A DNA stretch of 61,270 bases, the filler included, from Jimgerdemannia flammicorona (lineage: Eukaryota), in NCBI GenBank assembly GCA_003990765.1. It is 3 parts of 3 records of this genome, joined end to end, with 100 filler letters (N's around TTAATTAATTAA, not from the genome) between each part and the next. Parts side by side here need not be neighbours in the genome. Positions count along the whole stretch, not along the records: positions 20,461 to 40,818 come from RBNJ01001700.1; 2 more parts are not named here. One strand, given 5' to 3'. Of the stretch, positions 63 to 61,270 are shown piece after piece. Position numbers and translations under genes: made by a program. Under the pieces are notes generated by a model. The model saw only the letters and a list, made by a program, of their open reading frames with translations. It did not search any database and was not told the DNA's origin. Numbering within the stretch: position 1 is the first letter of the stretch; each line of letters begins with the position of its first letter.

Positions 63-314
63 TAGCATCTATGAAGTTGAGGTTGGATTTGTTGAGGAGA
101 AGTATTTGGTGGATATACTGGAGAAGAGAGTAAAGATAGGTGAGATAATAGTACTAATACCAATATTAGAGTATCTGAGATGGAATTCTAGAGTAGTATA
201 TCTAGTGGTTAAGGGGGTCCCCACAATATTGATAGAAGAGATAAAGAGTAGGATTAGGGTAATGATGTGAGAATATAGAGATATGGTAGATATAGATTTT
301 CAGATATAAGAGGG

Positions 315-1071
315 TATAATAGAATAAGCAATGAGTGATCATGTGACCTAGTGATGATATCATATGATCAAGTATGATATACAATATTATAAATGATGAA
401 TGAATGATGCAAAATAATACAGAAAATAATATCCAGCTTACCCCCAACAATTAGTACTACAGCAATTATTACTACAGCAGCTGATCATTACCTAGTAATT
501 GAGGTCCTGATCATAAAGTATTTTTTGCCACAAATTACCTAATAAAGGTTGCAATCACAAATCTTACTATAGTTACCAAATTAGTCACTTATATTTAGTC
601 AGAAATCACAAACCAACTTGTATAAATACCCCCCAGTTTCCTTTCGAAATAAATTAGTTTTAGTTCAGTTCTTGATACAAGAATCAAGTTCCCCCTACAC
701 ATATACATTCTCCTGAGTTTTAGTAATGATATCTAAGTAACTCTAGTATTTCTAGCTAAACTCCAGAAGCCTAGCTAACTTCTACCAGAACTGAGACTGG
801 TATACAAATCACAAAGACTTAAGTAAACCCATTGAACCTGAATTCCAAGGCAAATTCAGTCTGTATATAGTAAAGAACAAGACTCTTGAAAGATAGAGCA
901 AATCAGAAATATCTTTGAAAGATAAGGTACTGCTGCTATAATTACTTTTAAGTGAGCACTTCCTTAACTGAAGACTTCTTAGTATACATTGTATACTAAG
1001 TCCCTAAGTAATAGTCTTACTTCCCTAAGTATCCAAAAGATTAGAGAGGGATAGAAGTGAGAGATATTATA
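315..1071 (+). repeat. 5' LTR (757 bp) of the chromovirus
   Basis: Colinear with 6228-7015. Termini tataat...ttata (TG..CA after G->A/C->T). TATA box tataaat at 621-627. Confidence 0.92.
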
Positions 1072-4745: not shown

Positions 4746-5388
4746 AAACAAAGAGCATATAGCAAAGAAAGAAAACACCTTATTTATCTGAAATATACAA
4801 TACCAAATATTACCAAAAAAGAGATACTATAACTAATTACTAAGAAGATACTCAAGCAAGAAACAATTCAGCATAGTGTAGTAAAACATATTTGAATAAC
4901 TCTTTTCATGCTATCTGTGTCATCTCTATTAGATGATGACAGATACTTCATTTAGAACTTAAGAAAGCTGATGATATTGAAACCAATCTAAGTCCATCTA
5001 TGTAACAGATATTATTACTAGAGATTGCCTCAGATTACAAGAAATACTATTTCCAAGAGATTCAAACCTCCAGCCATAACAATGGGAGCCCTTACCCTAG
5101 ACAAGGATGACTAATCCTCACAAATGTGCCAACTAGACAAAAAAAAAAGAGGACTAAGATTTGTCAACTCTGTGTAACTATAACTGTAAGTAGTAATATC
5201 TTTGAAATCAGGACTTTCTCAGGTGACCAGTACATACTCTGCTTACAGCAACAGGTTATACATTCTACTGTAAAGTGTGATCGAATTATGATCACACCAG
5301 ACAGATGAATAAGTATAAATACCCAAGGTAAGAATACACTGCAACCCTTACCCCCCTCCCTCTCCCCAAGGAAAAGACAAGATAAAGA

Positions 5389-6216
5389 ATGTCTACTACC
5401 TACTGCCAAACTGCCCACCAGAGTCAGCCTCTCCCCAGCCAGATTGACTGCCTCTTTGGACACCTCCAGGTTATTATTCAAGGAAGGAACTGCCACTCTG
5501 AGGCCCTTAACCTCTCCAGCTAGGACCTAGGACAGTATGTCCTTGACTACTGTGAACTTATCAAAAGGACCTATCTTGCTACCAGTCACCTAGAAATCTG
5601 GTATGAATACAAAATTGGCCATCAACTCTTTCAACATACAAAAGGCCTACCCACTGACCAGGTCTCAGACTAGACCTATCTGGACAGGCATGAGCAAAGA
5701 CTAGCTAAGAAAATCCATCAAATCATGTACCATGTATCTTTTGCGATTCCCAATCTCAACTACATCTAACTGAAGGATTTCCAGAACCTCTTCTTCTCTG
5801 AGATTGATGAGCTAGAAATCAAGGTAGCCCAAGAAGCCAACTTCTGGATTGTCCTCAAGTCCACTGACTGCAAATCTTACTGGAGCCCTCTTCTGAATGA
5901 CAACTCAGACTAATGGCTTCAAGGTCTCTCTGACCTCTTTGAAGGACCACCTATCTGAATGAATATTCCCAGACATAAGGATCAAGAACTCTACTTAGAT
6001 GGTCCCAACTGCATTAGATGGAGAACCCCTACACCAAGGCCTATACCAGTTCCAGAGCCATTTGTAGACCTCATTAACTTCTCCATCTTGAACACTAAGC
6101 CATAATCAGCTACTCCTCCTGCTACTGAAGGAGAAGACAACAACACTGAGGAAAATTGCCCATCTTTCTCTCCCCTGGTCCTCATTTTTCAAATCAATAA
6201 GGATATTGATTTCTAA
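5389..6216 (+). pseudogene. Accessory ORF (copy A, 276 codons, unknown function) between pol and the 3' LTR
   Basis: One frame from ATG 5389 to TAA 6216, no frameshift, six internal stops mostly compatible with C->T. Homologous to 31920-32777, 59547-60008 and 43650-44271. Confidence 0.8.
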
Positions 6217-6227
6217 GAGAGGAAAGA
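6215..6227 (+). promoter_or_regulatory. Polypurine tract
   Basis: aagagaggaaaga immediately before the 3' LTR. Confidence 0.8.
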
Positions 6228-7015
6228 TATAATAGAACAAGTGATGAGTGATCATGTGACCCAGCAATGATATCATATGATCAAGTATGATATACAATAT
6301 TATGAATGATAAATGAATGATGTAAAATGGTACAGAAAACAATATCCAGCTTACCCCCAACAATTAATACCACAGCAAATATTGTCACAGCAGTTGATTA
6401 TTGTCTAGTAATTGAGATCCTGATTACAAAGTGTTTTTTTCCACAAACCACCTGACAAAGGTCATGATCATAAACCTCACTATAGTTACCAAATTAGTCA
6501 CTTATACTTAGTCAGAAATCACAGACCAACTTGTATAAATACCCCCCAGTTTCTATTTGAAATAAATCAGTTTTAGTTCAGTCCTTGATATAAGAATCAA
6601 GTCCCCCCCATACACACACATTCTCCTGAGTCTTAGTAATAACATCTAAGTAACTCTAGTATTTCTGACTAAACTTCAGAAGTCTAGCTAACTTTTGCCA
6701 GAACTGAGACTAGTATACAAATCACAAAAAGACTTAAGTAAATCTATTGAACCTGAATCCTAAGGCAAATTCAGTCTGTGTATAGCAAAGAACAAGACTC
6801 TTAAAAGATAGGGCAAACCAGAAAGACTCTTGAAAGATAGAGCAAATCAGAAAGATCTTTGAAAGATAGGGCACTGCTGCTACAACTACTTTTAAGTGAG
6901 CACTTCCTCAACTGAAGGCTTCTTAGTATACATTGTGTACTAAGGCCCTAAGTAATAGTCTTACTCTCCTAAGTATCCAAAGGATCGGAGATGGATAAAA
7001 GTGAGAGATATTATA
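6228..7015 (+). repeat. 3' LTR (788 bp) of the chromovirus
   Basis: Direct repeat of 315-1071 with one extra ~30-bp unit (tcttgaaagatagagcaaatcagaaa-like). Confidence 0.92.
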
Positions 7016-14618: not shown

Positions 14619-14786
14619 CTTCTTTTGCTCAAACCATTCAGAGCGAGCTAAGCCACACGGACATCTTTTCGTGAAAAGCAACACGTTTTCAAGTTTTTAC
14701 TTTGTCTATACTGGTGTACAAGGTGTGGCAGGAGTCTAGTAACAGTTTACAGCAAGTTTCATCAAATTCCACAGAGTTTTCATCAA

Positions 14787-16631: not shown

Positions 16632-16646
16632 ACATTTTTATTTATA

Positions 16647-19600
16647 ATGATGAACAGTCTACATATCTTATCATTAAATGTCAATGGTTTGTATGATGGA
16701 GTGAAGTGAAGGCATCTATTTCATTGGCTGAAGGTCAGAAGATATGATGTTGTATTGCTACAGAACATTCGGGCATATGGGGAGCAAGATTATGAAGATT
16801 GGAGTAGGGAATGGTATGGAAGTACTGGTTGGAACGAGCAGGTGGGCATTTTGGTTGGCTTGGGGAGAGGTGAGCTGATGGAAGTTGCAGCATATGGTGA
16901 TTGATTGGTCTGAGGGAGGTTGAAAGGTGGAGCTGGAGATGGACTAGTGGTCGGCTCCGCTTATCTGCCAGTGGTTGGCAGAGAGCAGAACCAATGGGTG
17001 GAAGGCTGGTCGGCTTAGGGAGACAGAGAGGAGGTGGGGCTGGACATTCTAGGGAGGGACTTTAACATGGTACGTGATAGAACATTAGATAGATCTGATG
17101 GTAGAGTTGGTGTGGCTGTATCTACCGGGCTCTTACGGTGGCTCCAGGTAGAGAGGGATATGGGATTGGTTGATGGGGTTCAACAGCATCAAGGGGAAAG
17201 GCCAGGGCCATTCACTAGGTGGCACCTAGTTGGCAAGAACTTGGTTGGAATGAGGATTGATTGGATTCTGGTGGCAGAATGCTGGGGCAATGTATTGGAT
17301 TCAACAGGAGTATGGTGGTGTCCTTGGTCAGATTACTGGGGAGTTGAGGTGTGTGGGAGATTCCAGACAGTCAGTAGAGGTGGGGGTAGATGGTGACTCA
17401 ATATGGCACTACTCAAAAGGCAGGTGGAAAGGGACCAATTTGTGGAAATTGCAAGGCAGGAAGTGGCACAGTGGAAAGACAGTGGACAGTCAATAGTACA
17501 GTGGTGGGGGAAATTCAAACATTTGGCAGGTGCTTACTGGTGGGATGTGGGAGAGGTAGCTGGAAGGGAGCAGAAGGATAGAGAAAGGAGAGTTGAACAG
17601 GGGCTACATTGGCAGCTGAAATCCCTGGAGGGAGAGAATTTATCTAGAGAGAGACACTCCCAGTTGGCTAAGGAGGTGGCTGAATTGTGGCTAGATTTGA
17701 AGGCAGCAGAAGATAGGGTGGTAGATAGGCTACTGGCGAGGTTGTGGGCAAGGCGGTTGGAGGAAGGAGAGCGACCTACTAAGTATTTGTCCAGAATATT
17801 GAAGGCCAGAAGAGTGTGGCACAGCTGGGCTTCAGTGTTGCAGAAGGATGGTGTTGAGGTTACTGGTATTACTGATATGCTTGGAGAGATCTCGGGGCAA
17901 TGGCGTGCTCTATGGCAAGATGGAGGAGGTCTGGTGGAGGGAGTGTCTCTACTAGAGGATAATGACAATCTTGTTAGCAGCTGGCCAGTGGTGGCAGTGC
18001 CTGAGATAGGTGGGGTGGTAATGAGTAGGGTGGCCCTTGAAGAGGTTTTGGAGGTACTGCGGAAAGTGCAGGCTGGCTCATCACCAGGAGAGGATGGGCT
18101 GCCTTGGGAGTTCTGGAAGGAATTCCAAGTCGAGTTTGGGGGATGGCTTGTTGAAATGGCAAACTTTGTGATAGGTGAAGGCTGCTGGGTTGGCAATGGC
18201 TCCTTAGGGTTAGTCTCTCTGCTCTACAAGGAGAAAGGGGATTGCCGTGTGTGGCAGAACTGGTGGCCCATTATGGTACTGAATGTAGATAGGAAGTTGA
18301 TATCCAAGATCCTGGCTAGGAGGATGCAACATTGGATTGGCCAATTGGTGGGTAAAGAACAGCAAGAATTTGTGAAGGGGAGACAGATCCAAGACAGCAC
18401 AGCCTGGGTGCAAAATGTATTAGAGGGCTGTCGAAGCTAGCAAGTGGATGGGAGAATAGTGTTCTTGGATCAGGAAAAAGCATATGATAGAGTGAGGTGG
18501 GACTATCTGGAGGCAGTTCTGCGAAAGACAGGATTCAGTATAGTGGAGGCTTGAAAACTGATGGGCCTGGTGCAAAGCTGTCAGGCTGTGGTCCTAATGA
18601 ATGGGTGGAGTGGCCCAGAGTTTGTCTTGGGGAGAGACATGCCACAGAGGGATCCTCTCTCACCCCTACTCTACATCCTATCCTTGGAGCCTCTGTTGAC
18701 ATGGTGAGAGGAAGGCTCACCAGGCTGAAGATGGGGGAGGTGGTCTGGAAGCTGGGGGCCTTCGCTGATGATATGGTGGTAGGGTTAGGCTGTATGGTGG
18801 ATGTAACAAGACTGCAGGAAGGAGTGAGGCAGTATGAGAGGCTGGCAGGGGTGAAGCTGAATTGGGGCAAGTATGAGACTATGGAGCTGGGAGCTGGTTT
18901 GGGAGAATATGGACATCTTGGTCAACTGGTCCATACAGAAGAGGCAGTCCGATATCTGGGTGTCTGGTTCTCAGTATATGGAACAGTTTGCCAAAGGAGT
19001 GGTGGAGTGGAATGATACAGAAGTGGGAGAATGCCTTGGTAGGCTGGTCAGGGAGGGGCTTCTCCTTGGTGGAGAGGATTGTAGTTCTGAATGTATATTG
19101 GCTACTGAAGCTGTGGTATTTGGGATATCATTTGGACTTTCCCAGTTGGGTGGTACAGAAACTGAAGAAGGTAGTGGAAGGATGGCTGTGGCAAGGAAGA
19201 AGACCACAGATTAGTTGGGAGACAGTAGTGATGCATACAGTAGATGGTGGATTGGGGCTGGTGGATTTTAGGAGGCAGCTGGAGGTGCTTCAGGTTTGGT
19301 GGGGCTGTCGATTGGCTGAATTAGAAGTGGATAGTTGGGGCAAACTGGCTATGGACAATTGGGAAGTCAGGTTTTGCCCCCATGGTAAGGTTCGAAAGGA
19401 TATACGTGGGTTGCTACAGATTGGAAGGGTTAGCAGATTGCAGTACTGGGGGTTCTGGTGGGGCATTGTAGAAGCTTGGCTGGCAATGAGCCTCACAGGT
19501 CCGGAGCCGGATAAAGAGGAGGATATGGAATAGAGATGGTGGCGACTTGGCAATATTTGTATTGGTGGCCACTGGTTGGCAGAATACTCTCTGTCTGGGG

Positions 19601-20265
19601 CAATGGAATGGATCTGGATGGGTCCACTTGAGAGATGGCCAGTTGGTTGGCAGAAGGCTGGATTTGGAGAAGATTGGGAGTGGGGCCCGGTTTGGGAATG
19701 GGGGACCTCATTGCTCAAGGTTATACTACCTAAGTTCTGGGTGGTATGGGTGGAGGAATGTCATGCTGGGGTACAGGATAGGGTGGATGGAGGCTGAAGG
19801 TGTGAGGGTATGCAAGTAGTATTGTGAGCTAGATGGGAGTGTGGTGCAGACACCGGAGCATGTTGTGGCAGTATGCCCAGGGGTGGAGGGATTTTGGCAG
19901 ACATTGGAAAGCTACTGGAGTGGCAAAAGTGAGCATGCAGGGGGCCCCACTAGTCGGGTGGTCAAGCGGCAACTGGTGGGCGAGATTGGGGACATTTGGG
20001 GGGGCCTAGGCCGGATTATTGGCATCTGGGTCCTGATGGTGATACACTGGCGATGGGTGTTCGAGAAGGATCCTTGGATGGGGATTGGCAAATTGGTGGA
20101 GTGGTGGAAAGGGTTGCTTCTGGAAGTGGTACAAGGGTGGTAGTATCAGGGGAAGAGGTACCAGTTGGGAGCCATGAGGAAGGTACTAGACATTGTCTGG
20201 AAAAGTCAAGAGCACCTAGTACTTAGTGAGAAGGGGGTGCAGTGGAAAGAAGGAGTTGGCTGATA
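16647..20265 (+). pseudogene. LINE ORF2: AP-type endonuclease, reverse transcriptase, C-terminal Cys/His motif
   Basis: ILSLNVNGL, DVVLLQ, RDFN, IDWIL, SSPGEDG, NWWPIMVLNVDRKL, DQEKAYDRV, DPLSP, FADD, YLGV, C..C..TPEHVVAVCP; several stops and frameshifts. Confidence 0.9.
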
Positions 20266-20360
20266 GGCCCTTCTTTATATATATATTTATAGTAGTTATC
20301 AGATAGGGTCTTGTTTATTAGATAGTTCCGTAATAAAGGAGTCCAAGTGACTATAAAAAA

Positions 20361-20460
20361 NNNNNNNNNNNNNNNNNNNNNNNNNNNNNNNNNNNNNNNN
20401 NNNNTTAATTAATTAANNNNNNNNNNNNNNNNNNNNNNNNNNNNNNNNNNNNNNNNNNNN
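20361..20460. other. Assembly gap with artificial six-frame stop spacer
   Basis: N-run containing TTAATTAATTAA at 20405-20416. Confidence 0.95.
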
Positions 20461-30479: not shown

Positions 30480-31642
30480 TAACTTTTTTAAGTAGTGAGA
30501 TATATCAGAGAATATATATAATATACTTTAAGTAAGAAGTATAAATAGTCTTTTCAAGTAGTAAGGTATATCAGAGTGATCAGAATGATGAGATGGTATA
30601 TCAAAATAGATATCAGAATAGGTACTAGAGTGAATAGTGAGTCAGAGAGTAAAGGTGTATCAGAATGAGTATGACATAAGTCAGAGCAATAAAAACAAAG
30701 CTATTAGAATAGAGTATGTACCCCCTCTCCTCTTAAAAAAAAAAAAAAAAAGATATATAGAATATATGTAATATATGCTAAGTAAAGAGTATAGATAGTC
30801 TTTTCAAGTAGTGAGATATGTCAGAGTAATCAGAATGGTGAGATAGTATACTGAAATAGGTATCAGATTAAGCACTAGAGTAGATAGTAAGACAGAGAGT
30901 AAAGGTATATCAGAATGAGAGCAATACAAGTTAAAGTGATAAAAATAAGACTATCAGAATAGAGCACACACTCTCTCTCCTCAAAAAAAAAAAAAAAAAA
31001 AACATGAGGAATATATATAATATATCTTAAGTAAGGAGTATAGATAGTCTTATTAAGTGGCAAAGTATGTTGGAGTGATCAGAATGGTGAGATAGGGTAC
31101 CAAAATAGGTACCAGAATAGGTACTAGAGTAGATAGTAAGAGAGAGAGTAAATATGTATCAGAATGAGAGTAATATAAGTCAGAGTGACAAAAACAAGAT
31201 CATTATAATTAGTTATATACTCTTTCCTCTTCTCAAAAAAAAAACAAAAAACAAAACAAAAAAAATAATATAGAGAATATATAATATATCTTAAGTAAGG
31301 AGTATAGAGAGCCTTTTTAAGTAAAAGATATATATATAGAAGATGAACTGTAAGAATCAGAGCCTTTTTTCAAGCTATAAAAATCAGAAATATAAGAAAT
31401 AAAGAGTGAGAAAATGAAGTAGAGAGAGTAAAGGCCTCTCCAAAAAAAAAAAAAAAAAAAAAAAAAAAGTACAGAAAATGTATATAATATATATATCTTA
31501 AGTAAGAAGTATGGACAGCTTTTTGAAGTAGTGAGATATAGAAGATGAGCTACAATAATCAGAGTCTTTTTTTGAGCTGAATTAGAGTCTTAAAAACCAA
31601 AGCTGTAAAAAATAAAGAATGAGAGAATAAGTAAAGGCCTCT

Positions 31643-31645: not shown

Positions 31646-31677
<32 letters not shown>
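31646..31677. repeat. (AT)n microsatellite directly upstream of an LTR
   Basis: About 16 AT units. Confidence 0.9.
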
Positions 31678-31680
<3 letters not shown>

Positions 31681-31919
31681 AATGGTGACCCCAGAATGAT
31701 GACATCAGCACAGAAGACAGTCTTTCCTTGCAAGCCATCAGATCAGAGCACAAGAAGATCATATGGCATATAAGATGAGCAATGATGACCAACTGTGAGT
31801 CATTGTGACCATAGTATAAGTATCTTGAGAAATATAAAAGAAGGATCAGGAAATTGTAGTAGCAGCAACCAACAAGACCCACCAATCCCAAAATAGCTCA
31901 AAGACTTACCACAAACAAA

Positions 31920-32777
31920 ATATCTGCTGCCTGCCAAACCTCAAGGTCAAGGAACCACCAAGGCACCTCAGTTGAAGAAAGGATGTTCCAAGACATCAAA
32001 AGAGCCATGAGGACATGCTCAAGAAGGATACCTAGTGTCAACCTAGGTACTAGTGACCCTTATCACTATATTCTCTACTGCTGTGAAATGGAAACAAGGA
32101 TCACCATTACTACTGAATGCCTCCAAATGTGGTAGGAGTATGAAATAGGAAACCTCCTCTGCCAGGAGTTCCTACAGGCCAGTCCTCAAGAGCTACAAGA
32201 TGCCACTCTCATAGATATATGCGAGGCAAGGACAGCTAAGAAGATCCATCAGATCTTCAGGCATGCACCATGGTTGATCCCCAACTTGGAGTATATTAGA
32301 GTCTCAGATTTCAGAGATCTGTCATCTTACCATATCAATGTACTAGAAGTCAGGGTGGCTACAGAAGCCCAGTCCACCATCACCCTCAATAGTGATGAAG
32401 TAGAAGACTTCTGGCATCCCATCCTTCAGGACAACCCAGACCAATTCCTGCAAGGGTTGATCTCAGTATTCCAAGACCCAAGCATCCAGATTAGACCTCC
32501 CCAAGACCCCACATTTATCCCCTATTTTGTGGAAGAGAACCTCATAGACCGGAGAGCTCCAGATCTCCTTGTTCCTGATTTCCCCACTGCCAAACATGAT
32601 GATGTCATTAGTGATGATGTCATCCCATGTGACATACACGAGATGCATAACAAAGCACATGAAGTATGCAAAATGCATGACCTATACAATGAATTCATAG
32701 ACCTCATCTCCTTCGAAGATATCCTGACCTCTGATAATGAGGATGAAGCCTCTATGATCCTGAACATTCTGCTCTAA
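31920..32777 (+). pseudogene. Accessory ORF (copy B, 286 codons) inside the LTR U3 region
   Basis: One frame with a single internal TAG and an ATA start (ATG in the sister LTR at 60944). Aligns along its length with 5389-6216. Confidence 0.85.
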
Positions 32778-32783
32778 GTCTCT

Positions 32784-32895
32784 TGTTATACTGAATAATG
32801 CCTGCACCAGTATTTGATGTAACACTGAATAATACCAGCACCAGTATTTGATGTAACACTGAATAATGCCAGCACCAGTATTTTGATGTGACACC
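32784..32895 (+). repeat. 34-bp tandem repeat (3 units plus a partial) in the LTR
   Basis: tgtaacactgaataat(g/a)ccagcaccagtatttga at 32784, 32818, 32852; partial at 32887. Confidence 0.9.
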
Positions 32896-33339
32896 AAATT
32901 ATACTAGTATCTTGAACCTGTACAACCATCAGTGCTGACCCTAGAACTTAGCAGTTTTTCCTGTTCTGGCATTTTATTTTAGTTATTGGAATTTATATTT
33001 AGCTTTCTACCTTAGCAAACATTGAATTATATTTTATATAAATACCCCTCTTATTTCCTCTGAAATAAAGTCAGTCAAGTTTCAGTCAAGTTCACTTACT
33101 CTCAATTCCATGCAAGCCATCTAAGAGATAACAAGACAGTTAAAGATAAGAAGTTTGAGGACTATAAGACTTTGGGAAGGCACTTCAATAAGAACTTGCT
33201 TATAACAAACTTGAGTTAGTCTAAGAGATATACCTTGAAGAGTATCTGGTATATTTGAAGGACTCAGTGACCACTACTTGACAACTTGGTGCCCATTGGC
33301 TGGTGATTCAAGATGAATCCCTCACTTTCAAGCTAGAAA

Positions 33340-36300
33340 ATGAACAACCCCCACAACAACTACCCTGACTATAAGATTCACCCCTGCAAGAATTCAAGAT
33401 AAGATAGAAATGCATCCCTCCACATTCTATAGATATACTACTGAAGAGTCAATCCTGACCTTTATTGAAGACTTTGAACAATTTGCTGCTGTATGATCTC
33501 TTAGTGTGGATGCACAATTGGCCCTTCTACTAGTCAGCCTCAGTGGACCTGCCAGAGACAAGTTCAATGCAGCCACTATTGCTGATAATGGTGCAGCCAA
33601 ACTTGCCAATATGAAGGCCTTCCTCAGAATAACATATTATACTGAAGAGATCAAGCAAGCTCTCAAGGATCAACTCAATACTATCTGCCAGAGACTTAGT
33701 GAAGATCCCAACTCATTTTATATCTGAATCTACTACCAGATTGTTCTGGCTGGCTATAATGATGCCCTCAAGAAACAAATAGCAGATTCAACCTTCCTTA
33801 AAAGAGTTCACCCTGAAATTGCCCTAGCAATCCAGTCTACCCCAGCTGTACTGACCCTTGATCAGGAAGTAGTCTTTGCACAGAGATATTGGACTGCCAG
33901 ACACCCTGCCAAACACTCAATGAAGAAAATAACTGGCATCAAGATAGAGCCATCAAAGCCAACTAGTATTATATCCACTACAGTTGTAAACAGACAACCA
34001 ACCCCACCTACCCCCAAGACAACCAAAGCTGACCCAGTGAAAGAACTTGCCAAGCAGTTTGCCAAGATGACTGCATATCTTAGAGATGTTGTTAGAGAAG
34101 TCTGAAGCACCAACAAGAGACAAGTATAGATATTTGCAGCTGCTACAGAAGAATGCAATATCACATACTTCAGATATGGAGAAGAAGGCCACTATGTAAA
34201 GAATTGTATGACTGAAACAAGACACAAAGCCCAACTAAGCAATGCTAGCAAAACCAGAGAACAAACCAATACAGTAGTCATCGAGGAGATTGGTGATACT
34301 GATGATGAAGAATACTATGAGGAGCTTGAATTCTACCCTGCTACTGAAGGTACCAGAACCCAGTCCAAGCCCTATAACAAGAAGAGCAACAGTAAGCCAG
34401 TTGGAAGACCAAAGAAGACTCCAGCTGTCACTATTCAAAGCAAGACTCAACCTAAGGAGATTGATCAAGATATGGAGTTAGATGAAGCTGCCCACCAAAT
34501 CATTGAAGGCACTACTCCAGTCTTAGGAGAAAGTGAAAGCAAGAAGGAACAGAAGCTGTGCAAGACCAAGATCTACCAGTGTGATATCTACAAGGATCTC
34601 AAGGAACAGAAGGTCAATGCTACCTTTGGACAGCTAGCTGAAGTCCCTGCCTTCAGACAGCAGTTGAGAGTAGGACTTACAACTACTGCCAAGAATCAAG
34701 AGTACAAGATTGTAGAAGCTCACAATATACAGAAAGAATCTGAGAACTCAGGTGAAGAATCCAAAGACCAGTGTAAGACATTAGTCTATACCCTATGTCA
34801 GATTGAAGACTGTATCTTTGATGCCATCATTGATACTGGTACTAGAGGATGCCTCATGAGCAAGAAGGCAATTGACCACCTAGGCTGGGACATTTAAGAG
34901 TCCACCAAGATGGTTTATGTTACAGCAGATAGTATATGAGCTACCCCCCTTGGCAAAATCTGAGAAGTCTCCATCAAGATAGAAGGAGCTACCATCTCAG
35001 TAGATGTGATTGTTACAAATGCCACCAACTATGACATTCTCATTAGCAACCAATGGCTTCACAAGGCCAAGACCATCATTGACCTCAATGCCCCAAAGAT
35101 GCAGATCAACTTTAGAGAAAGAAAGGTATGAGTCTCTATCAATGTCCACAAGGGAGTCCTACTAGACATGGAGGAAGAAGATGAAGAAGACACAGAGGTC
35201 TTCATGCACTTGGTGACCAAGAACAAGAACAAGAACAAGACACCTAAGCTCACAGATGAGCAGTGGTACAACAAGATCATCAATGGGTATGCCTCTCAAG
35301 AAAGATGCCCCCATGGTACTAGGATGTACTGCTCTGAATACCTGAATGACTGTTGGTCCTACATCAGTAAAGTCAGGAAAATCTGCCAACAGAAATACAT
35401 ATAAGCAAGAAGCCACCAAAGCAAAAAAGAAAGCCGAAGAAGATGACCAGCCCCCAGAGCTTCAAGCTGACAGTGATGATGAGGAGGAATAAGAATCAAA
35501 CATTATCCTCAAAGTCATGAAATTTCACCCTGAAGCCAAGATCCCAGAATACAAGACTGAAAGAGCCATAGGAATGGACCTTGCCAGCATTCAAGATACT
35601 ACCCTTGAACCACAGGCCACTACCCTACTTGGCACTGAAATTGGAGTCAAGCTGCCAGAAAACCATGCCAGAATTATCAAGATCAGGAGCAGTCTGGCCA
35701 AAAGCGAAACCTCAGTTGAAGGAGGAGTAATTGACCCTGATTACACCGGCAAGATCTTCCTCATAGTCAGGAATCACAACACCACCACCCCATTCGAAGT
35801 CAAGAAGCATGACAGGATTGGCCAGATGCTGATCCATGAAATCAAGAAGCCCAAGATCATAGAAGCCATCAAACTCATCAAGACTAAGAGAGGAGAACAA
35901 GGCTTTGGATCTACTGGAAGAGGAGCCTATGCTGCCACCAAGTTACCAAACTTGAGCACAAGAAAGACAAGGACCAGAACAAGCACACATATACTATTGG
36001 AGAAAACTTTTCCCTGGAAGAACAACTTCTCAAGATCCTGCATCAGAATGAAGGAGTACTTGCTACAGACTTCAGGGATATCCACAATCAAGAACCCAAG
36101 TACTACTACAAAGTTGACACTGGTGATACCAAGCCTATCTACCAGAAAGCCAGACCCATACCACCTACCTACAGAGAATGACTGCAAGCAGAACTCAAGG
36201 AAATAGAAGAAGTCAGAATCATCAAACAAGCTATCAGCCCCTGGGCTTCACCCATTGTCCTTGCCACAAAGAAAGGAAGCAAGACTGGAGAGTTTGCACC

Positions 36301-38627
36301 AAGACTCTGTATTGACTACAGGAAGCTCAATGCCATCACCAAAAAGGATAGACAGCCCTTGCCAAATATTCAAGAGATCCTTACCACTCTTGAAAATGAA
36401 GCCAAATACTACACCACCTTGGATCTGTTCTCAGGCTTCCATCAGATTGGTCTCACTCAAGATACCAGTGAGAAATCAGCCTTTATCATACCTGATGCCA
36501 CCTATATCTACCTGTGAATGCTATTTGGAATGTGTAATGCCCCAGCAAGTTTCCAGCAAATAATGAACAGAGTCTTCAGCAATGAGATTGGAAAATGGCT
36601 CTTTGTCTATGTTGATGATGTGATCATCTTCAGCAACACTGTATGGGAACATGTCAATCATATACAGCTAGCCCTCAAGAAGCTCAAGAAGCATGGCCTT
36701 TACATCAAGCCCAAGAAATGCAAGTTTGTGGCTCAGGAAATTACCTACCTAGGACACCTCATCAACCAGACCAGAATCCACACAGACCCCATGAAGATTG
36801 AGGCTGTTGCAGTCTACCTGAGACCCAGAACAATCACAGAAGTCCATGCCTTCCTTGGACTGGCCAGCTACTACAGAAGGTTCATCAAAGGATACTCCAA
36901 CATTGCAGTACCTATCTATGAGCTACTGAAGAAGGAGACCAAATTCGAATGAACCAAGGAGTATCAAGAAACCTTCAATAAACTCAAGACCAGGTTGATC
37001 CAAGCACCTATCCTCAGAAGACCAGATTGGAACCTAGAATTTATCCTGCAGACAGATACGAGTACTATAGGACTTGGAGCAGTCCTAGCTTAGAAGAAAG
37101 ATGGACATGAATATGCCATCTCCTATACAAGCCAAGATACCCATGGAGCAGAACAAAACTATGAGGCATGCAAGCTCAAATGCTTGGCAGTAGTCTGGGC
37201 AGTAGACATGTTCCACTACTATCTAGCTGAGAAATACTTCACTATTCAAACAGACCATTCTGCCCTTGCCTGGCTATTCCACACTCTGAACCCCAAAGGA
37301 ATATATATCAGATGGATCTACAGGCTGCAAGAGTATGACTGTACTGTCAAGTATCACTCAGGAAAGACTAATACTAATGCCAATACACTCTCAAGGACAC
37401 CCCAAAACACCCCCATCAAGACTATTCAACATAAATAAGAAGCTATACTATGAATTAATCAGCTATCTTGGGCAGTGGAAGATACCCAACTACCTCAAAC
37501 CCTGGACAATCACTATCATTAACCAGACTTGGAAACAGTTTGAACTAGACAACACTATACTCAGAAAAGGTAGAAAGCTAGTAATACCTGAACACAAGAA
37601 GTATCAAGTAATGAAGGAAGTACATGAGCAAGGATACCTAGGAGGAACCAATACATATGACAAGGCAAGAAGAACCATATGGTGGCCCAAGATGGAAGAA
37701 GACCTGTGCCAATTTGTCAAAGAGTTTGATAAGTGCCAAAAACAGAAATAAGATCAGTAAGACCAGGTACCTGGGTCATCAAGAATTGAGCCTATCTCCT
37801 TCCACCACATTGCAATAGATATTATTGGACCACTACCAGTAACACTCTCAGGAAACTGCTATATTATAGTTATTGTAGACCTCTTCACCAAATGGATAGA
37901 GGCAGGAGCATTACAAGAAGCCAATGCTCTCTCTATAGCTGACTTCCTGTACCAAGAAATCATCTGCCACTACAAGACACCAAAGCAAATCACAACAGAC
38001 CACAGCACAGAATTTATCAATGGATTCCATGAGATAATATATCAGAAATACAAGATCCAGCACATCAAGACCACCATGTACCACTTTCAAGAAAATGGAC
38101 AGACAGAGAGAACCAATAAGACCCTTAAGAACATCCTAGTGAAGATCTCAGAGACATATGAGAATTGGGATAACTATCTCCCAACTGCCCTCTCTGTCCT
38201 ATGAGACATATGGTCACAGAGCACAGACTTTACCCCAAGAGAGCTGCTCTTCAGAGAAGAAGATTCTGATGGAACCTCAGGTACAAATCTGGACCTAACT
38301 TAGAGATAAGTTGATGCAGAAATCTGGAGACTATACCAAATCAGGAAAAAGGCTGAAGATTACATCACCAAGTCACAAGCACTGATAGGGAAGAATGCAG
38401 AAAAGAATCACAAGACTCTAGAACCTATCTGAATTGGAGAAAAGGTTCTACTATATTGAAATATGGTAGAAGCCTCATGGTCATGAAAACTGGAGCCCAA
38501 ATGGGAAGGACCCTTCTATGTGCAAGATATCAAAGGAACCACCTTCTGACTCAGAAAAATCTCAGGAACCATACTGCCTACCATGGTACATAGGAACAGA
38601 CTCAAGAAGTACTATGAACCTATATAA
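33340..38627 (+). pseudogene. Decayed gag-PR-dUTPase-RT-RNase H (to 37438) and integrase (37431-38627)
   Basis: IIDTGT, RSSLA / GVIDPDYTGKI / RGEQGFGSTG, YVDD, TDH, IDIIGPLP, ITTDHSTEF, KWEGPF. Confidence 0.9.
35502..35918 (+). CDS. dut: dUTPase domain
   Basis: IGMDL, RSSLA, GVIDPDYTGKI, DRIGQML, RGEQGFGSTG. Confidence 0.92.
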
Positions 38628-39154
38628 GAGAAGTAAAATATTATGACTGCCCACAAGATTCTAGTCTGTGAATCATAACAGTATGTCCTGTGACTAGCAG
38701 GCTATCTGTCTGGACCATTCTCTAAGGGATATGGCTCTGGCAACTACTCATCCATGAGACTTTCGAAGTCAGAGGAGTTCGAACCATCAACTGATTGGTC
38801 AAGATCAGAATCAGGCCCTTGCTCTATATGAAGGGAGCGACCCTTCACTATCATGCCAAAATATAAAGAGAAGACACTAGCCTATAAATACCACTTTTCG
38901 ACCCCTTGTCAGAGGTTATAGAATCAGCAAATTTTTCAGGACTGGATTAATGAATAAGGATGCTCAAGAAGATCCTTATTCAGGAGGAAGATGTAATGGT
39001 GACTCCAAAATGATGACATCAGCACAGGAGACAGTCTTTCCTTGTAAGCCATCAGATCGGAGTATAAAAAGATCCAGGACCTTTCTCCTGTACAATTCAC
39101 ATTACACAAACTTCAAGTAACGGTTTTCAACACAACTCAGAGAAAAGGTATTAT

Positions 39155-40562
39155 ACAGGCAACATGGGCAACATGGGTAATACGGGCAACACAGGTGGAC
39201 AAGACAGGCAAGATGGGCAAGATGGGCAAGATGGCAAGATGACAAGACGGGTGACATGAAGATGGGCAAGATGGGCAAGATGGGCAAGACGGGTAAGACG
39301 GGCAAGATGGGTAAGACGGCAAGATGGCAAGATGGGCGACATGGGTAAGATGGGCGACATGGGCAAGATGGGCAGATGGCAAGACAGGCGACATGGACAA
39401 AATGGGCAAAATGGGCAAAATGGGCAAAACGGGCAACATGGGCAACATGGGCAACACGGGTAACACAGGTGGGCAACACGGGCAACACAGGCAATATAGG
39501 TGGGCAACATGGGCAATACGGGCAACACAGGCAACATGGGCAACACGGGCAATATGGGCGGATAAGATGGACAAGATGGGCAAGACAGGCAAGATGGCAA
39601 GATGACAAGATGGGCGACATGAAGACAGGCAAGATGGGCAAGACAGGCAAGACGGGCAAGACAGGCAAGACAGGCAAGATGGCAAGATGGCAAGATGGGC
39701 GACATGGACAAGATGGACAACATGGGTAAGATGGGCAGACGGCAAGATAGGCGACATGGGCAAAACAGGCAAAATGGGCAAAATGGGCAAAATGAGCAAC
39801 ACAGGCAACACAGGCAACACGGGTAGGCAACACGGGCAACACGGGCAACACGGGCGGGCAACAAGGCAACATGGGCAACACGGGCAACATGGGCAACATG
39901 GGCAACACAGGCAACATGGGCAACACAGGTGGGCAAGATGGGCAAGATGGGCAAGATAGGCAAGATGGGCAAGATGACAAGACGGGTGACATAGGTAAGA
40001 CGGGCAAGATGGGCAAGACGGGCAAGACAGGCAAGACGGGTAAGACAGGCAAGATGGCAAGATGGCAAGATGGGTGACATGGGCAAGATGGGCAGATGGC
40101 AAGACAGGTGACATGGGCAAAACAGGCAAAACGGGCAAAATGGGCAAAATGGGCAAAACAGGCAAAACAGGCAAAACAGGCAAAACGGGCAAAATGGGCA
40201 ACACGGGCAACATGGGCAACATGGGCGGGCAACACAGGCAACACGGGCAACATGGGCGGCAACACAGGCAACACGGGCAATACGGGCAACATAGGCAAGC
40301 AAGATGGGCAAGACGGGTAAGACAGGCAAGATGGCAAGATGGGTGACATGGGTAAGACGGGCAGATGGCAAGACAGGCAACATGGGCAAGACGGGCAAAA
40401 CGGGCAACACGGGCAACACGGGCAACACAGGCAACATGGGCAACATGGGTGGGCAAGACAGGCAAGACAGGCAAGATGGGCAAGATGGGCAAGATGAGCA
40501 AGATGACAAGATGGCAACACGAGCAACATGGGCAGACAAGACGAGCTAGATGGGCAAGACAG
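39155..40562. repeat. 9-bp-based minisatellite (GGCAA[GCA]A[TC]G) with ~360-bp higher-order period
   Basis: Continuous 8-9 bp units. Landmark ggcaga(t/c)ggc at 39371, 39734, 40091, 40360; atgacaag at 39239, 39602, 39974. Confidence 0.92.
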
Positions 40563-40818
40563 GAGGCACTAATAGGGGTAGGTCAGGTACACTAGATGCC
40601 AAATACTTGAGATGGTTGGGGCTCACAACCCATACCCACTGGGTGGGGCAGGTCGGGTAGGAGGATCTAGTTACTCGGGCAGTGAGGTCGCAACTCATAC
40701 CCTAAAGGTGCAAGGCTGGGAGTGAGTTGAGATTGGGGTGGAATGGGGCTACTAATGTTGTATGAGGATATGTGGCATGTTATAGATAGTTAATAAATGA
40801 GACAAAAAGTGGTAAAAA

Positions 40819-40918
40819 NNNNNNNNNNNNNNNNNNNNNNNNNNNNNNNNNNNNNNNNNNNNTTAATTAATTAANNNNNNNNNNNNNNNNNNNNNNNNNN
40901 NNNNNNNNNNNNNNNNNN
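40819..40918. other. Assembly gap with artificial six-frame stop spacer
   Basis: N-run containing TTAATTAATTAA at 40863-40874. Confidence 0.95.
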
Positions 40919-42442
40919 CTAAATAAATATATTTTATATTATAATATATTATAGTTTTATATTAGAGATATTTAAAAATATTAAATTTATTGTTTTTAAA
41001 TTTTTATTTTATCTTTAAAAAAAAATCTAAAAAAAAAAATTTATTAGTTCAGTTTTGGAACCAAATTATTTATAAATATTCTTTATTTAATAAATAGACA
41101 ATAAATTTAGATATATATTTAAAACTTATTATAATTATTCTTTTAATATTTCTCTATAATCTTATATATTTTATCTTTTGAAAAAATAATAAAAAAACTC
41201 TTTTTAAATATATATAAATATATATAATATATTATTAATATACTTAATTCAAACATTAAAGCAATAATATTTTGTCCAAAGAAGGCTATTTAAATATACT
41301 TTCTACTCATAATAAATTATAATTTATTTATTAAATAGATTAGTTATAGTTTGAAATTATATAAATTACTAGTGTATTAAATATATATATATAAATAATA
41401 GGAGAATAAATATATACTATACAGATAAGACTGATATTAGGTAACTAGAAGTATATAGTATCCTCTAATAAAACAAAAATCAATTATTTTGGATTCTGCA
41501 TATGACATCTGCCTTTTTCCGTCATCTTCAAATTTTACGTCAATCGATGTCACGTGACTTTTCCACATTGAAAATGCCGCGAAACTACTTTAAACTGACT
41601 GTAAAACTACTTTAAATTGACTGCAAATTCTCAAATAATATATTATTATTATTTCAAATATCTAAGATACTACAAAATTGAATCAAAGATACGAAATATC
41701 ACTTAATGCAAGTCACGTGACATCGATTGACGTAAAATTCGAAGATGACGGAAAAAGGCAGATGTCATATGCAGAATCCAAAATAATTGATTTTTGTTTT
41801 ATTAGAGGATACTATATACTTCTAGTTACTTAATATTAGTCTTTTCTGTACAGTATCTATTTATTCTCCTATTATTTATATATATATATTTAATACTCTA
41901 GTAATTTATATAATTTCAAACTATAACTAATCTATTTAATAAATAAATTATAATTTATTATGAGTAGAAAATATACTTAAATAGCCTTCTTTGGACAAAA
42001 TATCATTGCTTTAATGTTTGAATTCAGTATATTAATAATATATTATATATATTTATATATATTTAAAAAGAGTTTTTTTATTATTTTTTTAAAAGATAAA
42101 ATAATTAAGATTTTAAAAAATAAATTATATAAAATTATAGAGAAATATTAAAAGAATAATTATAATAAGTTTTAAATATATATCTCAATTTATTGTCTAT
42201 CTATTAAATAAAGAATATTTATAAATAATTTGGTTCCAAAACTGAACCAATAAATTTTTTTTTTTAGATTTTTTTTTAAGATAAAATAAAAATTTAAAAA
42301 CAATAAATTTAATATTTTTAAATATCTCTAATATAAAACTATAATATATTATAATATAAAATATATTTATTTAGAGCATTTTTATTTAAATAATTAAAAT
42401 ATAAAATTTAATAAAACATTGGTTCAGTTTTGAAATATACTG
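40919..42442. mobile_element. Second fold-back DNA transposon family (left tip lost in the gap)
   Basis: Near-perfect inverted arms 40919-41560 and 41710-42374. Right end CATTGGTTCAGTTTTGAAATATACTG followed by TA. Matching end at 61133. Confidence 0.88.
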
Positions 42443-46789: not shown

Positions 46790-49700
46790 TATAATATAGC
46801 ATAATATATAGTTTAGTAGTCACTTAATCTCATAGTTATATAATTTGTATAATTATATATATATATCTCTCAACTATATGAATTTCACAGATACATATAT
46901 AGATCTCTCAATTATACAGATTTTACAGATATATAGATCTTACAACTATATGAAATAACTCATAGGAAAGAAAGTTTTAACTTAGCTACCATATAGTTAG
47001 CAAACTTATATAAATATCTCTAATATCTAGAGTGAATAAATCTTAGATCAAAATAGTTCAAGCAAAGAGATAAGAAATTAGTAAGCCTAGACAGATATAC
47101 TTTGAACTCACCCACCTCTATACCTGAGGACTCTGAGAAACTAAAGAAAATTACATATTTAAGATAAAGAAATCTACTACACTTCTGTTAATATATATTT
47201 ACTATATTACAACTTAGTACCCATTGTTTAATAATTTAAGACAAATCTCTCACTTTTAAGCTAAATAATAAATAATCTCTACTACTCAAATATATACTCA
47301 AACCAAATCAAGACATTTAGATTAGATATAAGATCACTAGTATTTTATAGATATATCTCTGATAAATCAATTATTATCTTCCTTAATTATTTTAAATAAT
47401 ATACTACTATAAGAACTCTATCAATATAATAACAAATATCTCTAATATTATTCAGTCTTTAAGAATCTGCAAGAGCTGTATTTAGAGCTATAAATTATGT
47501 CAAAAATAATGATACTATAATACTGATAGTACAGAAGATCTAGTTGTAAGCCATCTACTATAGATAAAATCAAGCAGGCTCTAAAGAATCAATTTAATAG
47601 TATTTAGTAAAGAATAAATAAAGACCCAAATATCTTCTATACCTAAATCTACTATTAGATAATCTTGGCTAATTATACTGATACTATCAGAGATTAAGTA
47701 GCTAAAGTAATCTTTATAAAAGAAATTCATCCAGAGATAGCTATAGCAATCTGATCAATGCTAATAGTCCTGAACTTAGTATAGAAGGTGACTTATGCTT
47801 AGTAATATTGGATAGCAAGATACTTATAAGACTATACAATAGGGAGTCACTGGAGTCTAAATTGAAATACTCAAAGTAACTAGTATAATTTCTATAACTA
47901 TAATCAATTGAAATACACCTCAACCAAAGGTCATAGAGTAGTAGAGAAATAGTGATTCTATAGAGGAACTTGTTGAGAAGTTTTCTGAAATAACTATTTA
48001 TCTGAGAGATATAGTAAAGGAAATCAGTAAAAGATATCATCAGCTCCTTTCTCCACTACCTTACTAGTTACAATAATTTGGTAGACAATCTTCCAAGTCC
48101 ACTTTCTATACCTAATATCCCCTCTACCTTGGGTTGGTTTGTTATATTTATTGCAGAGCAGTGGAAGAGAGATAATAGTAATGAGTTGCCTCTTTATCAG
48201 TATCAGATTAGTGTCTTCTCTACTTTTTTATAGTTTCTGATACCTTTAGCTACATCTAGGATATACTCATTTTGATGCAGTACCTTCTTTCTTTTGCTAT
48301 TGCCAACAAGGTATTGTCTTGGTATTTCACAGATTATGTAGAGAGTCAGCTGACCTTGAGCATCAAGTGTTCAGTATAGGTTATCTATAGGTTCTTAGTA
48401 TCTATAGTGGGGCCCTCTGGCTTTGGCAAGCTTCCCAGCAAGTACAGTTCTGGTATAGGTGACTGTTTTTCAGATGATATTAGGATGGGAGAAGAGTTGG
48501 CCATTACAGATAGGAGAAAGGATGATAATGGTAGACCAATAGGGTGCTAGGCTGGGGGCAGTCATCGGGGCTAGGGCAGGTGCTGCTTCAGTGGGGCCTT
48601 TTGATTAGTACAGAGTAGTTAGGTGATAGATATTACTCTTGGCTACTTTTGGCAATTTGTGAGATTGGGTCTCAGTTATTGAGAGTAACTGAAGGGCCTA
48701 AGGCTACTCATGTCAGATATCTTAGCTACACTCAACTGAAACTAAAAGCTGATATAGTAATATAATTGAGGTCTACAGGCTTGAGTAGTAAGATATTAGG
48801 AGTCTCCTCTCACCTTACATATAAGTTCACTACTTATCTTACTTGAGAGAACTAAGCTCTACCCACTATTCTGTACTTTGAGGAGAGTTTTTTCTTTACT
48901 TATCATTTCTACTTGGGGTAGCAGAAGCTATTCTATTTAGCTCAGATATGGTCTTATACATATGTTGGGGTTTTGAGCATATACTTTCAGTCATTGGTAT
49001 ATGGCTGAGTTCTCCCTGGTAGTAGAGAGAGTATAGTATGCAGAATGAGGTATAGACTGCTTTAGGCCCTGCTGTGCCTAGTATGGTTGAGCTGCTGGAT
49101 AATAGTTAGTCTAAGTTTAATGGGGGGGTGGTGTTCAGTGAGTGGTAGAGGAGGGTTTTGATCTATATAGTCTAGGTTCCCTTCTAATAAAAATCTGCAG
49201 AACTCTGAATAAAATAAAAAAAAATAAAAAAATAAAAATAAAAAAGGAAAAAATATCATTACCCAGTTAAGAAGTTTGCTACTACTATAGATAAGAAGAG
49301 ATGAACCTGCTATACTTGTAAAGTAGAAGACCACTACTCTTATAAATATATGAGTAAGACTGAGCATAAGGTCTAGCTAAGAAATACTGTTAGAAAATAT
49401 AAACAGACCAATATTATCAACTTGGAAGAGATTGGATATTTAGAGAAAGAGAAAGAATAGAAAGCTTATCTAGCTCTTATCTTTAAAAGAATATCTATCA
49501 GAAATCCTATAAGAGACTATTAGGAAGACTTAAGAAAAAAGTAGTAGAACAGCCTATAGAAAGATAAATAGAGATATTTACAGAAATTGAAACTATGATG
49601 GAAATCTTCATCTTTTGATAATAAATAAGACTAGAACTCACAGAAATAGTTAAGGATCAAGGGTGGAAGATAGTTGAGGCCAATAATATATAAAAGGATT

Positions 49701-53971: not shown

Positions 53972-54358
53972 ATTGTCTAAATCAAACACCCCGATTTAGT
54001 ATAGCATTTCGACATTGTCTAAGTTTCTAGACATTGTCTAAATGACTCATAACTTAGCCACATAACTCAGTAGCCATTGCATAGCTAGCAAACTTGTATA
54101 AATAACTCAGTATCTTGGAGTGAATAAACCTCAGATTGAAAGTGTTAGAAAAAGAACAAGTATACCAATAAAGGGACTTTCGGGATTACCTCTTTAAATA
54201 CATTTGGCCTCAAGGAACTACTGACTCTGGGAGTCAAGAAGACAAGAATTCAAGATAAAGAAATCTGATGTACTTGCCCATCTTAACATCTGCTACGTTA
54301 CAACTTGGTGCCCATTGACTGGTAATTCAAGATGAATCCCTCACTTTCAAGCTGAACA

Positions 54359-60008: not shown

Positions 60009-60045
60009 ATGCCTCAGAGACAAGACCATCTATTCAGGAGGAAGT

Positions 60046-60500: not shown

Positions 60501-60691
60501 ATAGCCAGATTATCATATTTCTATTAGGCTGAAGCTATCAATATAGTGATATACATATATATATAATAAATATATATCTCAAGTATTAAGTAAGGAATCT
60601 GGCAATAATAATAAGTATTTCAGAGATGATGATCTTACTCCTGAAGAGTTATAGAGCAGAATAAAGTCAAATATATATATTATATTAATAT

Positions 60692-61132
60692 TATAATAGT
60701 GACCTCAGAATAATGATATTAGTATAGAAGATAGCCTTTCCTTATAAGTTATCAGATTAAGCACAAGAAGATCATATGGTATGACTCACCCAAGCTATAA
60801 GATGAGTAATGATGACCAATTGTGAGTCATTATGACTACAAGACAGACATCTTGAGAAATATAAAAGAAGGATCAAGAAACTACAGTAGCAGTAACTCAA
60901 ACAAAGCTTACAGAAATAGTTCAAAAGACTTACTACAAATAAAATGCCTACTCTTACCAAACCTCAAGGTCCAGGAATCACCAAGACCTCTCAGTCTAGG
61001 AAAGGATGTTTCAAGACATTAGAAGAGCCATAAGAACCCATACAAGAAGAACTCCTAGTCTCAACCTGGGTACTAGTGACCCTTATCATTATATCCTCTA
61101 CTATTGCAAAATGGAAACAAGAATCACTATTA
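60692..61132 (+). repeat. 5' part of a second long-type LTR, including the start of the accessory ORF (ATG 60944)
   Basis: Colinear with 31678-32110; interrupted at a TA by a DNA transposon. Confidence 0.88.
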
Positions 61133-61270
61133 CAGTATGTTCCAAAACTGAACCAATGTTTTATTAAATTTTACATTTTAATTATTTTGAATATAAATGC
61201 TATATAAAAAAAAATATATTATTATACTTTATTGTAGCCCTATATCAGGGGTATCCAGGATACAAAATTT
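61133..61270 (+). mobile_element. Left end of a TA-flanked element related to 40919-42442
   Basis: CAGTATGTTCCAAAACTGAACCAATG matches the reverse complement of 42417-42442. Confidence 0.85.

Follow-up and report, generated by a model that had tools for sequence, protein, structure and literature searches.

A probable orphan gene within the U3 region of a Ty3/gypsy-type LTR retrotransposon of Jimgerdemannia flammicorona

Introduction

The closest described parallel to the locus reported here is the sag gene of mouse mammary tumor virus (MMTV), an open reading frame (ORF) of about 300 codons that lies in the U3 region of an unusually long LTR and is doubled with it. Its product, Sag, is a type II membrane protein, and a spliced subgenomic RNA is one route for sag expression. 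Two regulators from complex retroviruses also bear on our interpretation: foamy virus Tas is a trans-activator that is encoded at the 3' end and has an internal promoter, and HTLV-1 Tax acts on three 21-bp repeats in U3. As for other additions to pol, a dUTPase lies between protease and reverse transcriptase (RT) in the rotifer elements Juno, Vesta, and TelKA and in basidiomycete gypsy elements.

Plant LTR retrotransposons carry additional ORFs (aORFs; examples are those of Grande, RIRE2, and Retand, and env-like ORFs). A review describes these as family-wide, of unknown function, and present in most copies, and places them after pol and ahead of the 3' LTR, in either the sense or the antisense orientation; it has no wording for an ORF in, within, or inside an LTR (PMC7264820). 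In a report on elements of bdelloid rotifers, the dUTPase is upstream of RT in Juno, Vesta, and TelKA and is called rare in retrotransposons; these elements have LTRs of 159-551 bp and a captured ORF3 after pol, which can be env-like, a GDSL esterase, or a DEDDy exonuclease, and their extra ORFs are lineage-specific and absent from early branches (PMC5408684). In a search of the open-access literature, with most hits judged by title and abstract, we found no paper that describes a non-retroviral LTR retrotransposon as having an ORF within its LTR; the papers on ORFs in LTRs were mostly about MMTV. Here we describe a gypsy-type LTR from J. flammicorona whose U3 region appears to hold a gene of its own.

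Results

Retroelements in the window

The window, by which we mean the whole 61,270-nucleotide stretch that was analysed, chains three contigs through linkers of the form N44-TTAATTAATTAA-N44 (20361-20460 and 40819-40918). It is AT-rich (GC of 0.23-0.53 in 2-kb bins) and packed with decayed retroelements. Self-comparison of the window and Pfam identified an LTR retrotransposon, el1, on the middle contig (20461-40818), which is the site of the ORF-bearing LTR. The features of el1 and of its relatives are collected in Table 1.

A sequence-only reading of this DNA had proposed that 31678-33283 is an LTR that holds a 286-codon frame with one stop, preceded by its own TATAAA and followed by 34-bp repeats and the main TATAAA. 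All of these features are in the sequence, and so are the marks given for the LTR itself: TG..CA (TG at 31678, CA at 33282-33283), an adjacent PBS-like stretch, and a 5' end that recurs after the polypurine tract (PPT). The end of the LTR aligns with the LTR ends of two related elements, el2 (53972-60501) and el3 (25462-20461, minus strand), and is followed, as in those elements, by the common PBS-like stretch. We place the end at 33283 because el2 and el3 share both this stretch and the terminal sequence CTAC.TT.ACA. The 26 bases of the PBS-like stretch contain TGG and recur almost unchanged after the LTRs at 54304 and 24985 (minus strand). A tRNA scan and an Rfam scan of the window gave no match and no tRNA gene.

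The internal parts of el2 and el3 are 65-72% identical to that of el1. Their LTRs measure about 455 bp in el2 (3' LTR at 60047-60501) and 474 bp in el3, and neither holds an ORF. A fourth element, el4, is described below. Three elements each lack one end in the window: el1 its 3' end, and el2 and el4 their 5' ends.

In el1, Pfam places a dUTPase (35493-36206, E = 7.7e-26) directly upstream of RT, and then RVT_1 (from 36518), RT_RNaseH (from 37094), Integrase_H2C2 (from 37290), and rve (37761-38204). Both el1 and el4 have the order RT, RNase H, integrase, as in Ty3/gypsy. The gag-like frames of the el1 internal region had no match in Pfam, Pfam found no protease domain in the decayed frames, and no env gene was detected in el1. 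As the domains are scattered over several frames, el1 is dead: it is the remnant of a Ty3/gypsy-type (Metaviridae-type) element encoding a dUTPase. The ORF copies in the window are likewise inactive.

The best relative of the RT is a metagenome protein that is 65% identical and combines dUTPase with RT. Among the 120 matches listed, 17 carried the name of an organism (16 animals and 1 plant), and these were 32-44% identical over 27-40% of the query. The sequencing runs that contain parts of the el1 LTR are mostly soil metagenomes, with no RNA sample among those listed.

CpG is nearly absent from el1 and el4 (observed/expected of 0.02-0.06, and 0.15 window-wide), the ratio (CpA+TpG)/(ApC+GpT) is 1.2-1.6, and the differences between copies are mainly transitions. 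We considered RIP-type mutation and rejected it, as the near absence of CpG and the value of this ratio point to CpG depletion.

Table 1. Coordinates of the ORF-bearing LTRs and associated features, counted along the window
Feature	Position	Strand	Details
el4 5' LTR remnant	289..1071	+	87.7% identical to 6202-7015; ORF-bearing part absent
Putative el4 3' LTR	5162..7015	+	preceded by purine-rich run 5139-5159; TATAAA 5314, ATG 5389, TATAAA 6534, AATAAA 6561
Second copy of the U3 ORF (el4)	5389..6105	+	238 codons, 5 in-frame stops
el1 5' LTR	31678..33283	+	1606 bp, TG..CA; start recurs after PPT
TGAGTCA motif	31796..31802	+	31 bp upstream of first TATAAA, kept in sister copy
First TATAAA of el1 LTR	31833..31838	+	87 bp upstream of ORF start position
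U3 ORF (el1)	31920..32777	+	286 codons including final TAA
Tandem repeat	32790..32894	+	34-bp unit, 3.1 copies, between ORF and main promoter
Main core promoter	33035..33069	+	TATATAAATA and the single AATAAA (33064); conserved in all el1-el4 LTRs
PBS-like stretch	33284..33309	+	26 bases, begins ACTTGGTGCCCATTGG; near-identical in el1, el2, and el3
el1 internal region	33310..38981	+	domains split over many frames
Polypurine tract	38982..38991	+	AGGAGGAAGA
el1 3' LTR stub	38992..39074	+	first 83 bp only, then unrelated sequence
Sister LTR fragment	60692..61133	+	80.7% identical to 31678-32110; ORF start region decayed

The U3 ORF belongs to an orphan family

The el1 frame is broken twice: it has an in-frame TAG at 32133-32135, and its start position, where the start codon of its homologues aligns, reads ATA. 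When the el1 LTR was simulated 3000 times under a first-order Markov model, a stop-free run of at least 213 codons arose only once. Of 59 candidate proteins compared with the stop-free part of the ORF, 6 matched at E ≤ 0.01, with 59-74% identity. Profile searches extended the family: 8000 candidates were scored and gave 11 protein clusters (defined at 90% identity), and 5 cluster representatives reached E ≤ 0.001 among 1.84 billion. The 11 clusters are 27-80% identical and form three subgroups, and every one of them derives from metagenomes, where the encoding contigs measure 0.6-4.8 kb. Open members of the family have 247, 271, 325, and 342 amino acids. The full-length homologues start at the position that the sequence-only reading had chosen, and they span both of the el1 breaks intact. 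Within the variable C-terminal part, members differ only by indels that keep the frame, and all retain the conserved end.

The protein has no recognizable relative outside this family in the collections that we searched. Four members of the family had no match in Pfam at E ≤ 1, nor did the pieces of the window, and searches with the U3 ORF protein against NCBIfam and against PDB sequences gave no match. A copy of gag or pol is ruled out, as the profile, run over the window in 1351 six-frame pieces, matched nothing but the ORF copies. Scans of contigs with the ORF profile yielded no relative among 210 pattern matches in viral contigs and none among 15 in genome contigs. The scan of metagenome contigs returned a single locus, which we rejected as a chance match to the peptide pattern (30% over 78 residues, with many stops).

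The profile search of the six-frame pieces also found a second copy of the ORF, in el4, whose translation is 37.5% identical to that of the el1 ORF. Across 232 codons, the two copies have 115, 89, and 136 differences at codon positions 1, 2, and 3 (chi-square, P = 0.0075); this is the order (2 < 1 < 3) that would be expected of coding sequence, with the proviso that the codons were aligned by way of the protein, which somewhat favours positions 1 and 2. We take these comparisons to show that coding constraint held on the U3 gene while the lineage was active, and we regard the el1 frame as a genuine gene, once under selection, from an orphan family.

The ORF lies within U3

In el1, the LTR starts upstream of the ORF, which begins 242 bp downstream of the LTR start as defined by the PPT. 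Downstream of the ORF is a core block, TTGTATAAATA-CC...AATAAA, that is kept in 6 of 6 aligned LTR ends from four elements. The el1 ORF is wholly within U3.

The el4 copy is at the other end of its element. The pol domains of el4 (RT from 2367, RNase H from 2816, integrase Zn from 3447, and SH3_Tf2-1 at 4271-4426, all by Pfam) lie upstream of the ORF, with about 960 bp separating the SH3_Tf2-1 match from the ORF and about 230 bp separating a purine-rich run from it. The start of the putative 3' LTR was placed by eye from this run, not by a repeat. Only 6202-7015 of the putative 3' LTR is matched by the 5' LTR remnant of el4, which starts about 100 bp past the position of the ORF's end. The U3 gene is present in at least two divergent element families in the window and is absent from the nearest sister lineage.

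Could these be ordinary third ORFs between pol and the 3' LTR, with the LTR boundaries drawn too wide? Extra ORFs commonly come after pol (PMC7264820; PMC5408684), and in el4 the part shared between LTRs begins only at 6202, past the ORF. However, the el1 ORF occupies the 5' end of its element, with the flank on one side and gag on the other, and upstream of it is the same 83-bp sequence that el1 has behind the PPT at its 3' end. Nor does 6202 look like the edge of an LTR, as no purine tract precedes it and the shared part starts in mid-sequence without TG. We consider it very improbable that the boundaries are misplaced in this way, and we retain the placement of the ORF within U3.

The 3' end of el1

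No element in the window has the ORF in both of its LTRs: el1 has it in the 5' LTR only and el4 in the putative 3' LTR only. The el1 3' LTR (38992-39074) matches 31678-31760 with 90% identity over 81-83 bp and then, after 83 bp, parts from the 5' LTR exactly at 31760. What follows is unrelated DNA, a 9-bp satellite (39196-40563, about 150 copies), and the end of the contig. The el1 3' end is 1.7 kb from the contig end and may be misassembled.

The sequence-only reading had taken complete 3' LTRs without the ORF as the mark of a secondary insertion. In that case, a block at about 31761-33000 would have been inserted or captured later in some LTRs, the ancestral LTR would have been short, and the el1 stub would be original. 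The departure at 31760 fits this account, as do the ORF-less LTRs of 455-475 bp in the nearest lineages (el2 and el3) and the lack of the ORF part in the el4 5' LTR remnant. But the sister copy at 60692-61133, which sits in a different contig from el1, is continuous across the 31760 junction. Also, the stub does not continue into promoter, R, and U5, as a short LTR would; instead, it runs into unrelated DNA and the satellite, so that it looks like a broken LTR. Furthermore, three divergent subgroups under coding constraint would need long persistence in replicating lineages. Finally, there is weak evidence from contig depth, a summed value that does not give the number of copies. Over 31667-32467, this depth was about 2-4 times that of the internal region in three DNA runs: 1049-1445 versus 326-642 in run X1, 59-74 versus 8-46 in run X4, and 39-70 versus 7-30 in run X7. 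This excess fits two or more ORF copies per element, if only weakly. Overall, we consider a later insertion quite unlikely. We read the departure of the el1 3' LTR as damage or misassembly and not as the original state, because the sister copy is unbroken across the junction, because the stub enters unrelated sequence, and because the second ORF copy is at the 3' end of el4.

The sister fragment had also been said to retain the ATG. It does have an ATG at the corresponding position, but this ATG is out of frame because of a gap of 1 base directly after it and several stops.

One contig from run X4 links 39044 to 31732. It hints that the el1 3' LTR continues like the 5' LTR.

If the ORF is an original part of U3, as we propose, then its duplication would follow from the mechanism of replication. 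Reverse transcription would copy everything between the PPT and R to both ends of the element, so the U3 gene would be doubled at every insertion and retained in solo LTRs. The same mechanism speaks to the parent of el1: the sequence from the flank to R at the 5' end is copied from the part of the parental RNA that follows the PPT, so the 3' end of the parent would have included the ORF.

Promoter-like and poly(A) signals

The two LTRs that bear the ORF each contain exactly two TATAAA motifs and one AATAAA, and the ORF-less LTR of el2 contains one of each. The first TATAAA of el1 and its surroundings are identical in the sister copy, which also keeps the upstream TGAGTCA (a candidate AP-1/Gcn4-type site). 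In el4, the first TATAAA is 75 bp before the ORF start and repeats the GTATAAATACCC of the main promoter. The main TATAAA of the el1 LTR, at 33037, is 27 bp before the AATAAA. A motif search of the ORF-bearing LTRs found no AATAAA in the ORF or elsewhere upstream of the main promoter; the single AATAAA of the LTR comes about 300-450 bp past the stop codon of the ORF. The number of 34-bp repeat copies differs among contigs of other runs, and the U3 region of el4 has no repeats of this type before its main promoter.

From these motifs, we propose that the U3 gene would form its own transcription unit inside the LTR. As no AATAAA comes before the LTR's own, a transcript from the first TATAAA would run to that signal and be about 1.2 kb long. 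Any LTR, whether 5', 3', or solo, could then give a monocistronic mRNA without the genomic RNA. Run X13, whose RNA label is a guess, would fit LTR transcripts and DNA rich in solo LTRs equally well, and we count it for neither. The genomic RNA itself, given a main TATAAA only 27 bp before the AATAAA, would start at or behind that signal and would thereby skip it in the 5' LTR.

Another possibility is that the U3 gene is real but is read from a spliced subgenomic RNA that runs from the main promoter to an acceptor before the ORF of the 3' LTR. In any case, the ORF is within the 3' end of the genomic RNA. AT-rich DNA commonly holds TATAAA, and in el4 a 23-base pyrimidine run that ends in AG lies 18 bases before the ATG (found by eye). 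In el1, however, the only acceptor-like site is weak. The TATAAA is at a like distance from the ORF (87 and 75 bp) in two families whose proteins are just 37.5% identical, and both the match between the surroundings of the motif in el1 and the sister copy and the repetition of the main core promoter's sequence in el4 argue against this route. We think that expression by splicing is unlikely, and we favour a separate transcription unit that would begin near the first TATAAA.

Predicted properties of the U3 protein

The U3 protein has no predicted membrane segment (the highest 19-residue hydropathy window is at most 1.07). Its C-terminal tail is strongly acidic and studded with hydrophobic residues: the net charge of the last 70 residues is −17, −17, −17, −8, and −15 in the five members tested. 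The first 60 residues are basic in some family members. AlphaFold2 reached a mean pLDDT of 36 with 6 sequences and 53 with 14 (pTM 0.48), and at this low confidence the protein is modelled as mostly helical.

Searches with structure gave little. Foldseek had no match in the PDB at E ≤ 0.001. The best VIA-align hit was to a TetR-type helix-turn-helix (residues 64-111, Z = 5.0) and the Arc C-lobe scored Z = 3.6; both values are inside the noise range of the tool. In a protein atlas, the best score was 0.88, to an unnamed cluster.

On composition and the low-confidence model, the product would be soluble and would act in trans as a regulator of the element, which is the weakest step of our proposal. 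Our leading guess is that it would be an activator at the main LTR promoter; alternatively, it could be a factor that counters host silencing. The regulator reading is suggested by the acidic tail, by the separate promoter-like unit, and by the three 34-bp repeats before the main promoter, which are found in el1 only. Still, the odds that the protein is a trans-acting regulator are low.

Discussion

We propose that the LTR of el1 carries an orphan gene in U3, that the gene was doubled along with the LTR, and that it had its own putative transcription unit and a regulator as its product. We assign this reading as a whole a probability of roughly 60%.

The likeness to the U3 genes of complex retroviruses, which the sequence-only reading had raised, holds for position and not for the protein. 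As with MMTV sag, the ORF is wholly in the U3 of a long LTR. In contrast to MMTV, which is a retrovirus (Betaretrovirus), the carrier here is of Ty3/gypsy type, with no env detected. The encoded protein also differs from Sag, as it lacks a membrane segment and has no common Pfam family. Another difference from sag is that the TATAAA directly before the ORF in both el1 and el4 suggests, as a motif, that the gene had a promoter of its own. Thus, el1 is probably a new variant, in which a gypsy-type element has an orphan gene, unrelated to sag, at the place that sag takes in MMTV.

Known retrotransposon genes compare as follows. Unlike the plant aORFs, the el1 ORF is downstream of the PPT and inside the LTR, not in the internal region. 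The dUTPase upstream of RT resembles Juno, Vesta, and TelKA in domain content, but the U3 protein is unrelated to the ORF3 types of the rotifer elements. As for Tas and Tax, we use them as a working analogy only: a 3'-end or U3 gene that may have had its own promoter, a product with an acidic tail, and the three 34-bp repeats that el1 has between the gene and the main TATAAA. No relation to either was found in sequence or fold, and the el4 U3 is without such repeats.

A stronger version of our proposal is that the LTR is a self-sufficient gene cassette, with its own promoter, an orphan regulator gene, and a poly(A) signal. Each insertion would then bring two expressed copies, and solo LTRs would be working genes that feed elements in trans or are adopted by the host. 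We consider this version doubtful.

LTR retrotransposons normally carry their extra genes downstream of pol and ahead of the 3' LTR, and conserved genes within U3 are known, apart from the case described here, mainly from a single genus of retroviruses. If what we see in el1 is general for its lineage, then LTRs would be more than regulatory DNA, the dosage of the gene would double at every insertion, and solo LTRs, which are usually counted as dead remnants, could remain protein-coding. Reference proteomes, moreover, do not show the family: 11 of 11 clusters are from metagenome contigs. As it is seen there only, repeat masking may conceal a whole class of genes that are borne by such elements.

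Sister elements and adjoining repeats

Two sister elements, both with a dUTPase, share 65-72% identity with element 1, the dead Ty3/gypsy-type element that has the 286-codon ORF in the U3 of its 5' LTR. Neither sister has the ORF in its LTRs (455-475 bp), so gain or loss of the ORF block took place inside the group of element 1 and its sisters. Another LTR end of the type of element 4, the second element with a divergent copy of the ORF, is present with the beginning of its internal region and has no ORF copy upstream.

Directly upstream of the element 1 LTR is an A-rich tandem repeat (~249 bp) with poly(A) runs, and a related piece adjoins the truncated 5' LTR of element 4. The repeat may serve as a favoured target or as a partner in recombination. 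Behind the 3' LTR stub of element 1 lies a satellite in which a 9-bp unit (TGGGCAAGA) is repeated ~150 times; it also shows higher-order periods of 88-110 bp. Its minus strand holds three long open frames (464-488 aa), which have no match in Pfam and are meaningless. In sequencing run X13, satellite depth equals LTR depth.

Positions of linkers and repeats in the window
Feature	Positions
Linker (44 N, TTAATTAATTAA, 44 N)	20361-20460; 40819-40918
Sister elements	53972-60501; 25462-20461 (minus)
Element 4-type LTR end	51369-51931
A-rich repeat, upstream of element 1	30485-31636
Related piece, at element 4	1-288
A-rich repeat or related piece	49208-49276
Satellite	39196-40563
G-rich block	7016-20360
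Direct repeats	7666-9489 vs 12516-14327
RVT_1 match	18491-19015
Inverted repeat	40919-41500; 42374-41770

Window composition

The linkers mark the window as three contigs set end to end, and adjacency across them is not biological. The first contig contains a G-rich block (GC ~0.5, GC skew +0.43 to +0.53), in which direct repeats (72-76% identity) are spaced ~4838 bp apart. Frames in this block reach 387 aa and match no Pfam family; a single weak match to RVT_1 was found there (E 0.005). The third contig starts with a 600-bp inverted repeat (93% identity) set in very AT-rich DNA.

The observed/expected ratio of CpG is 0.15 for the whole window and only 0.02-0.06 in elements 1 and 4, and transitions predominate between repeat copies. 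Together, this extreme depletion and the predominance of transitions suggest that CpG sites in the host are heavily methylated.
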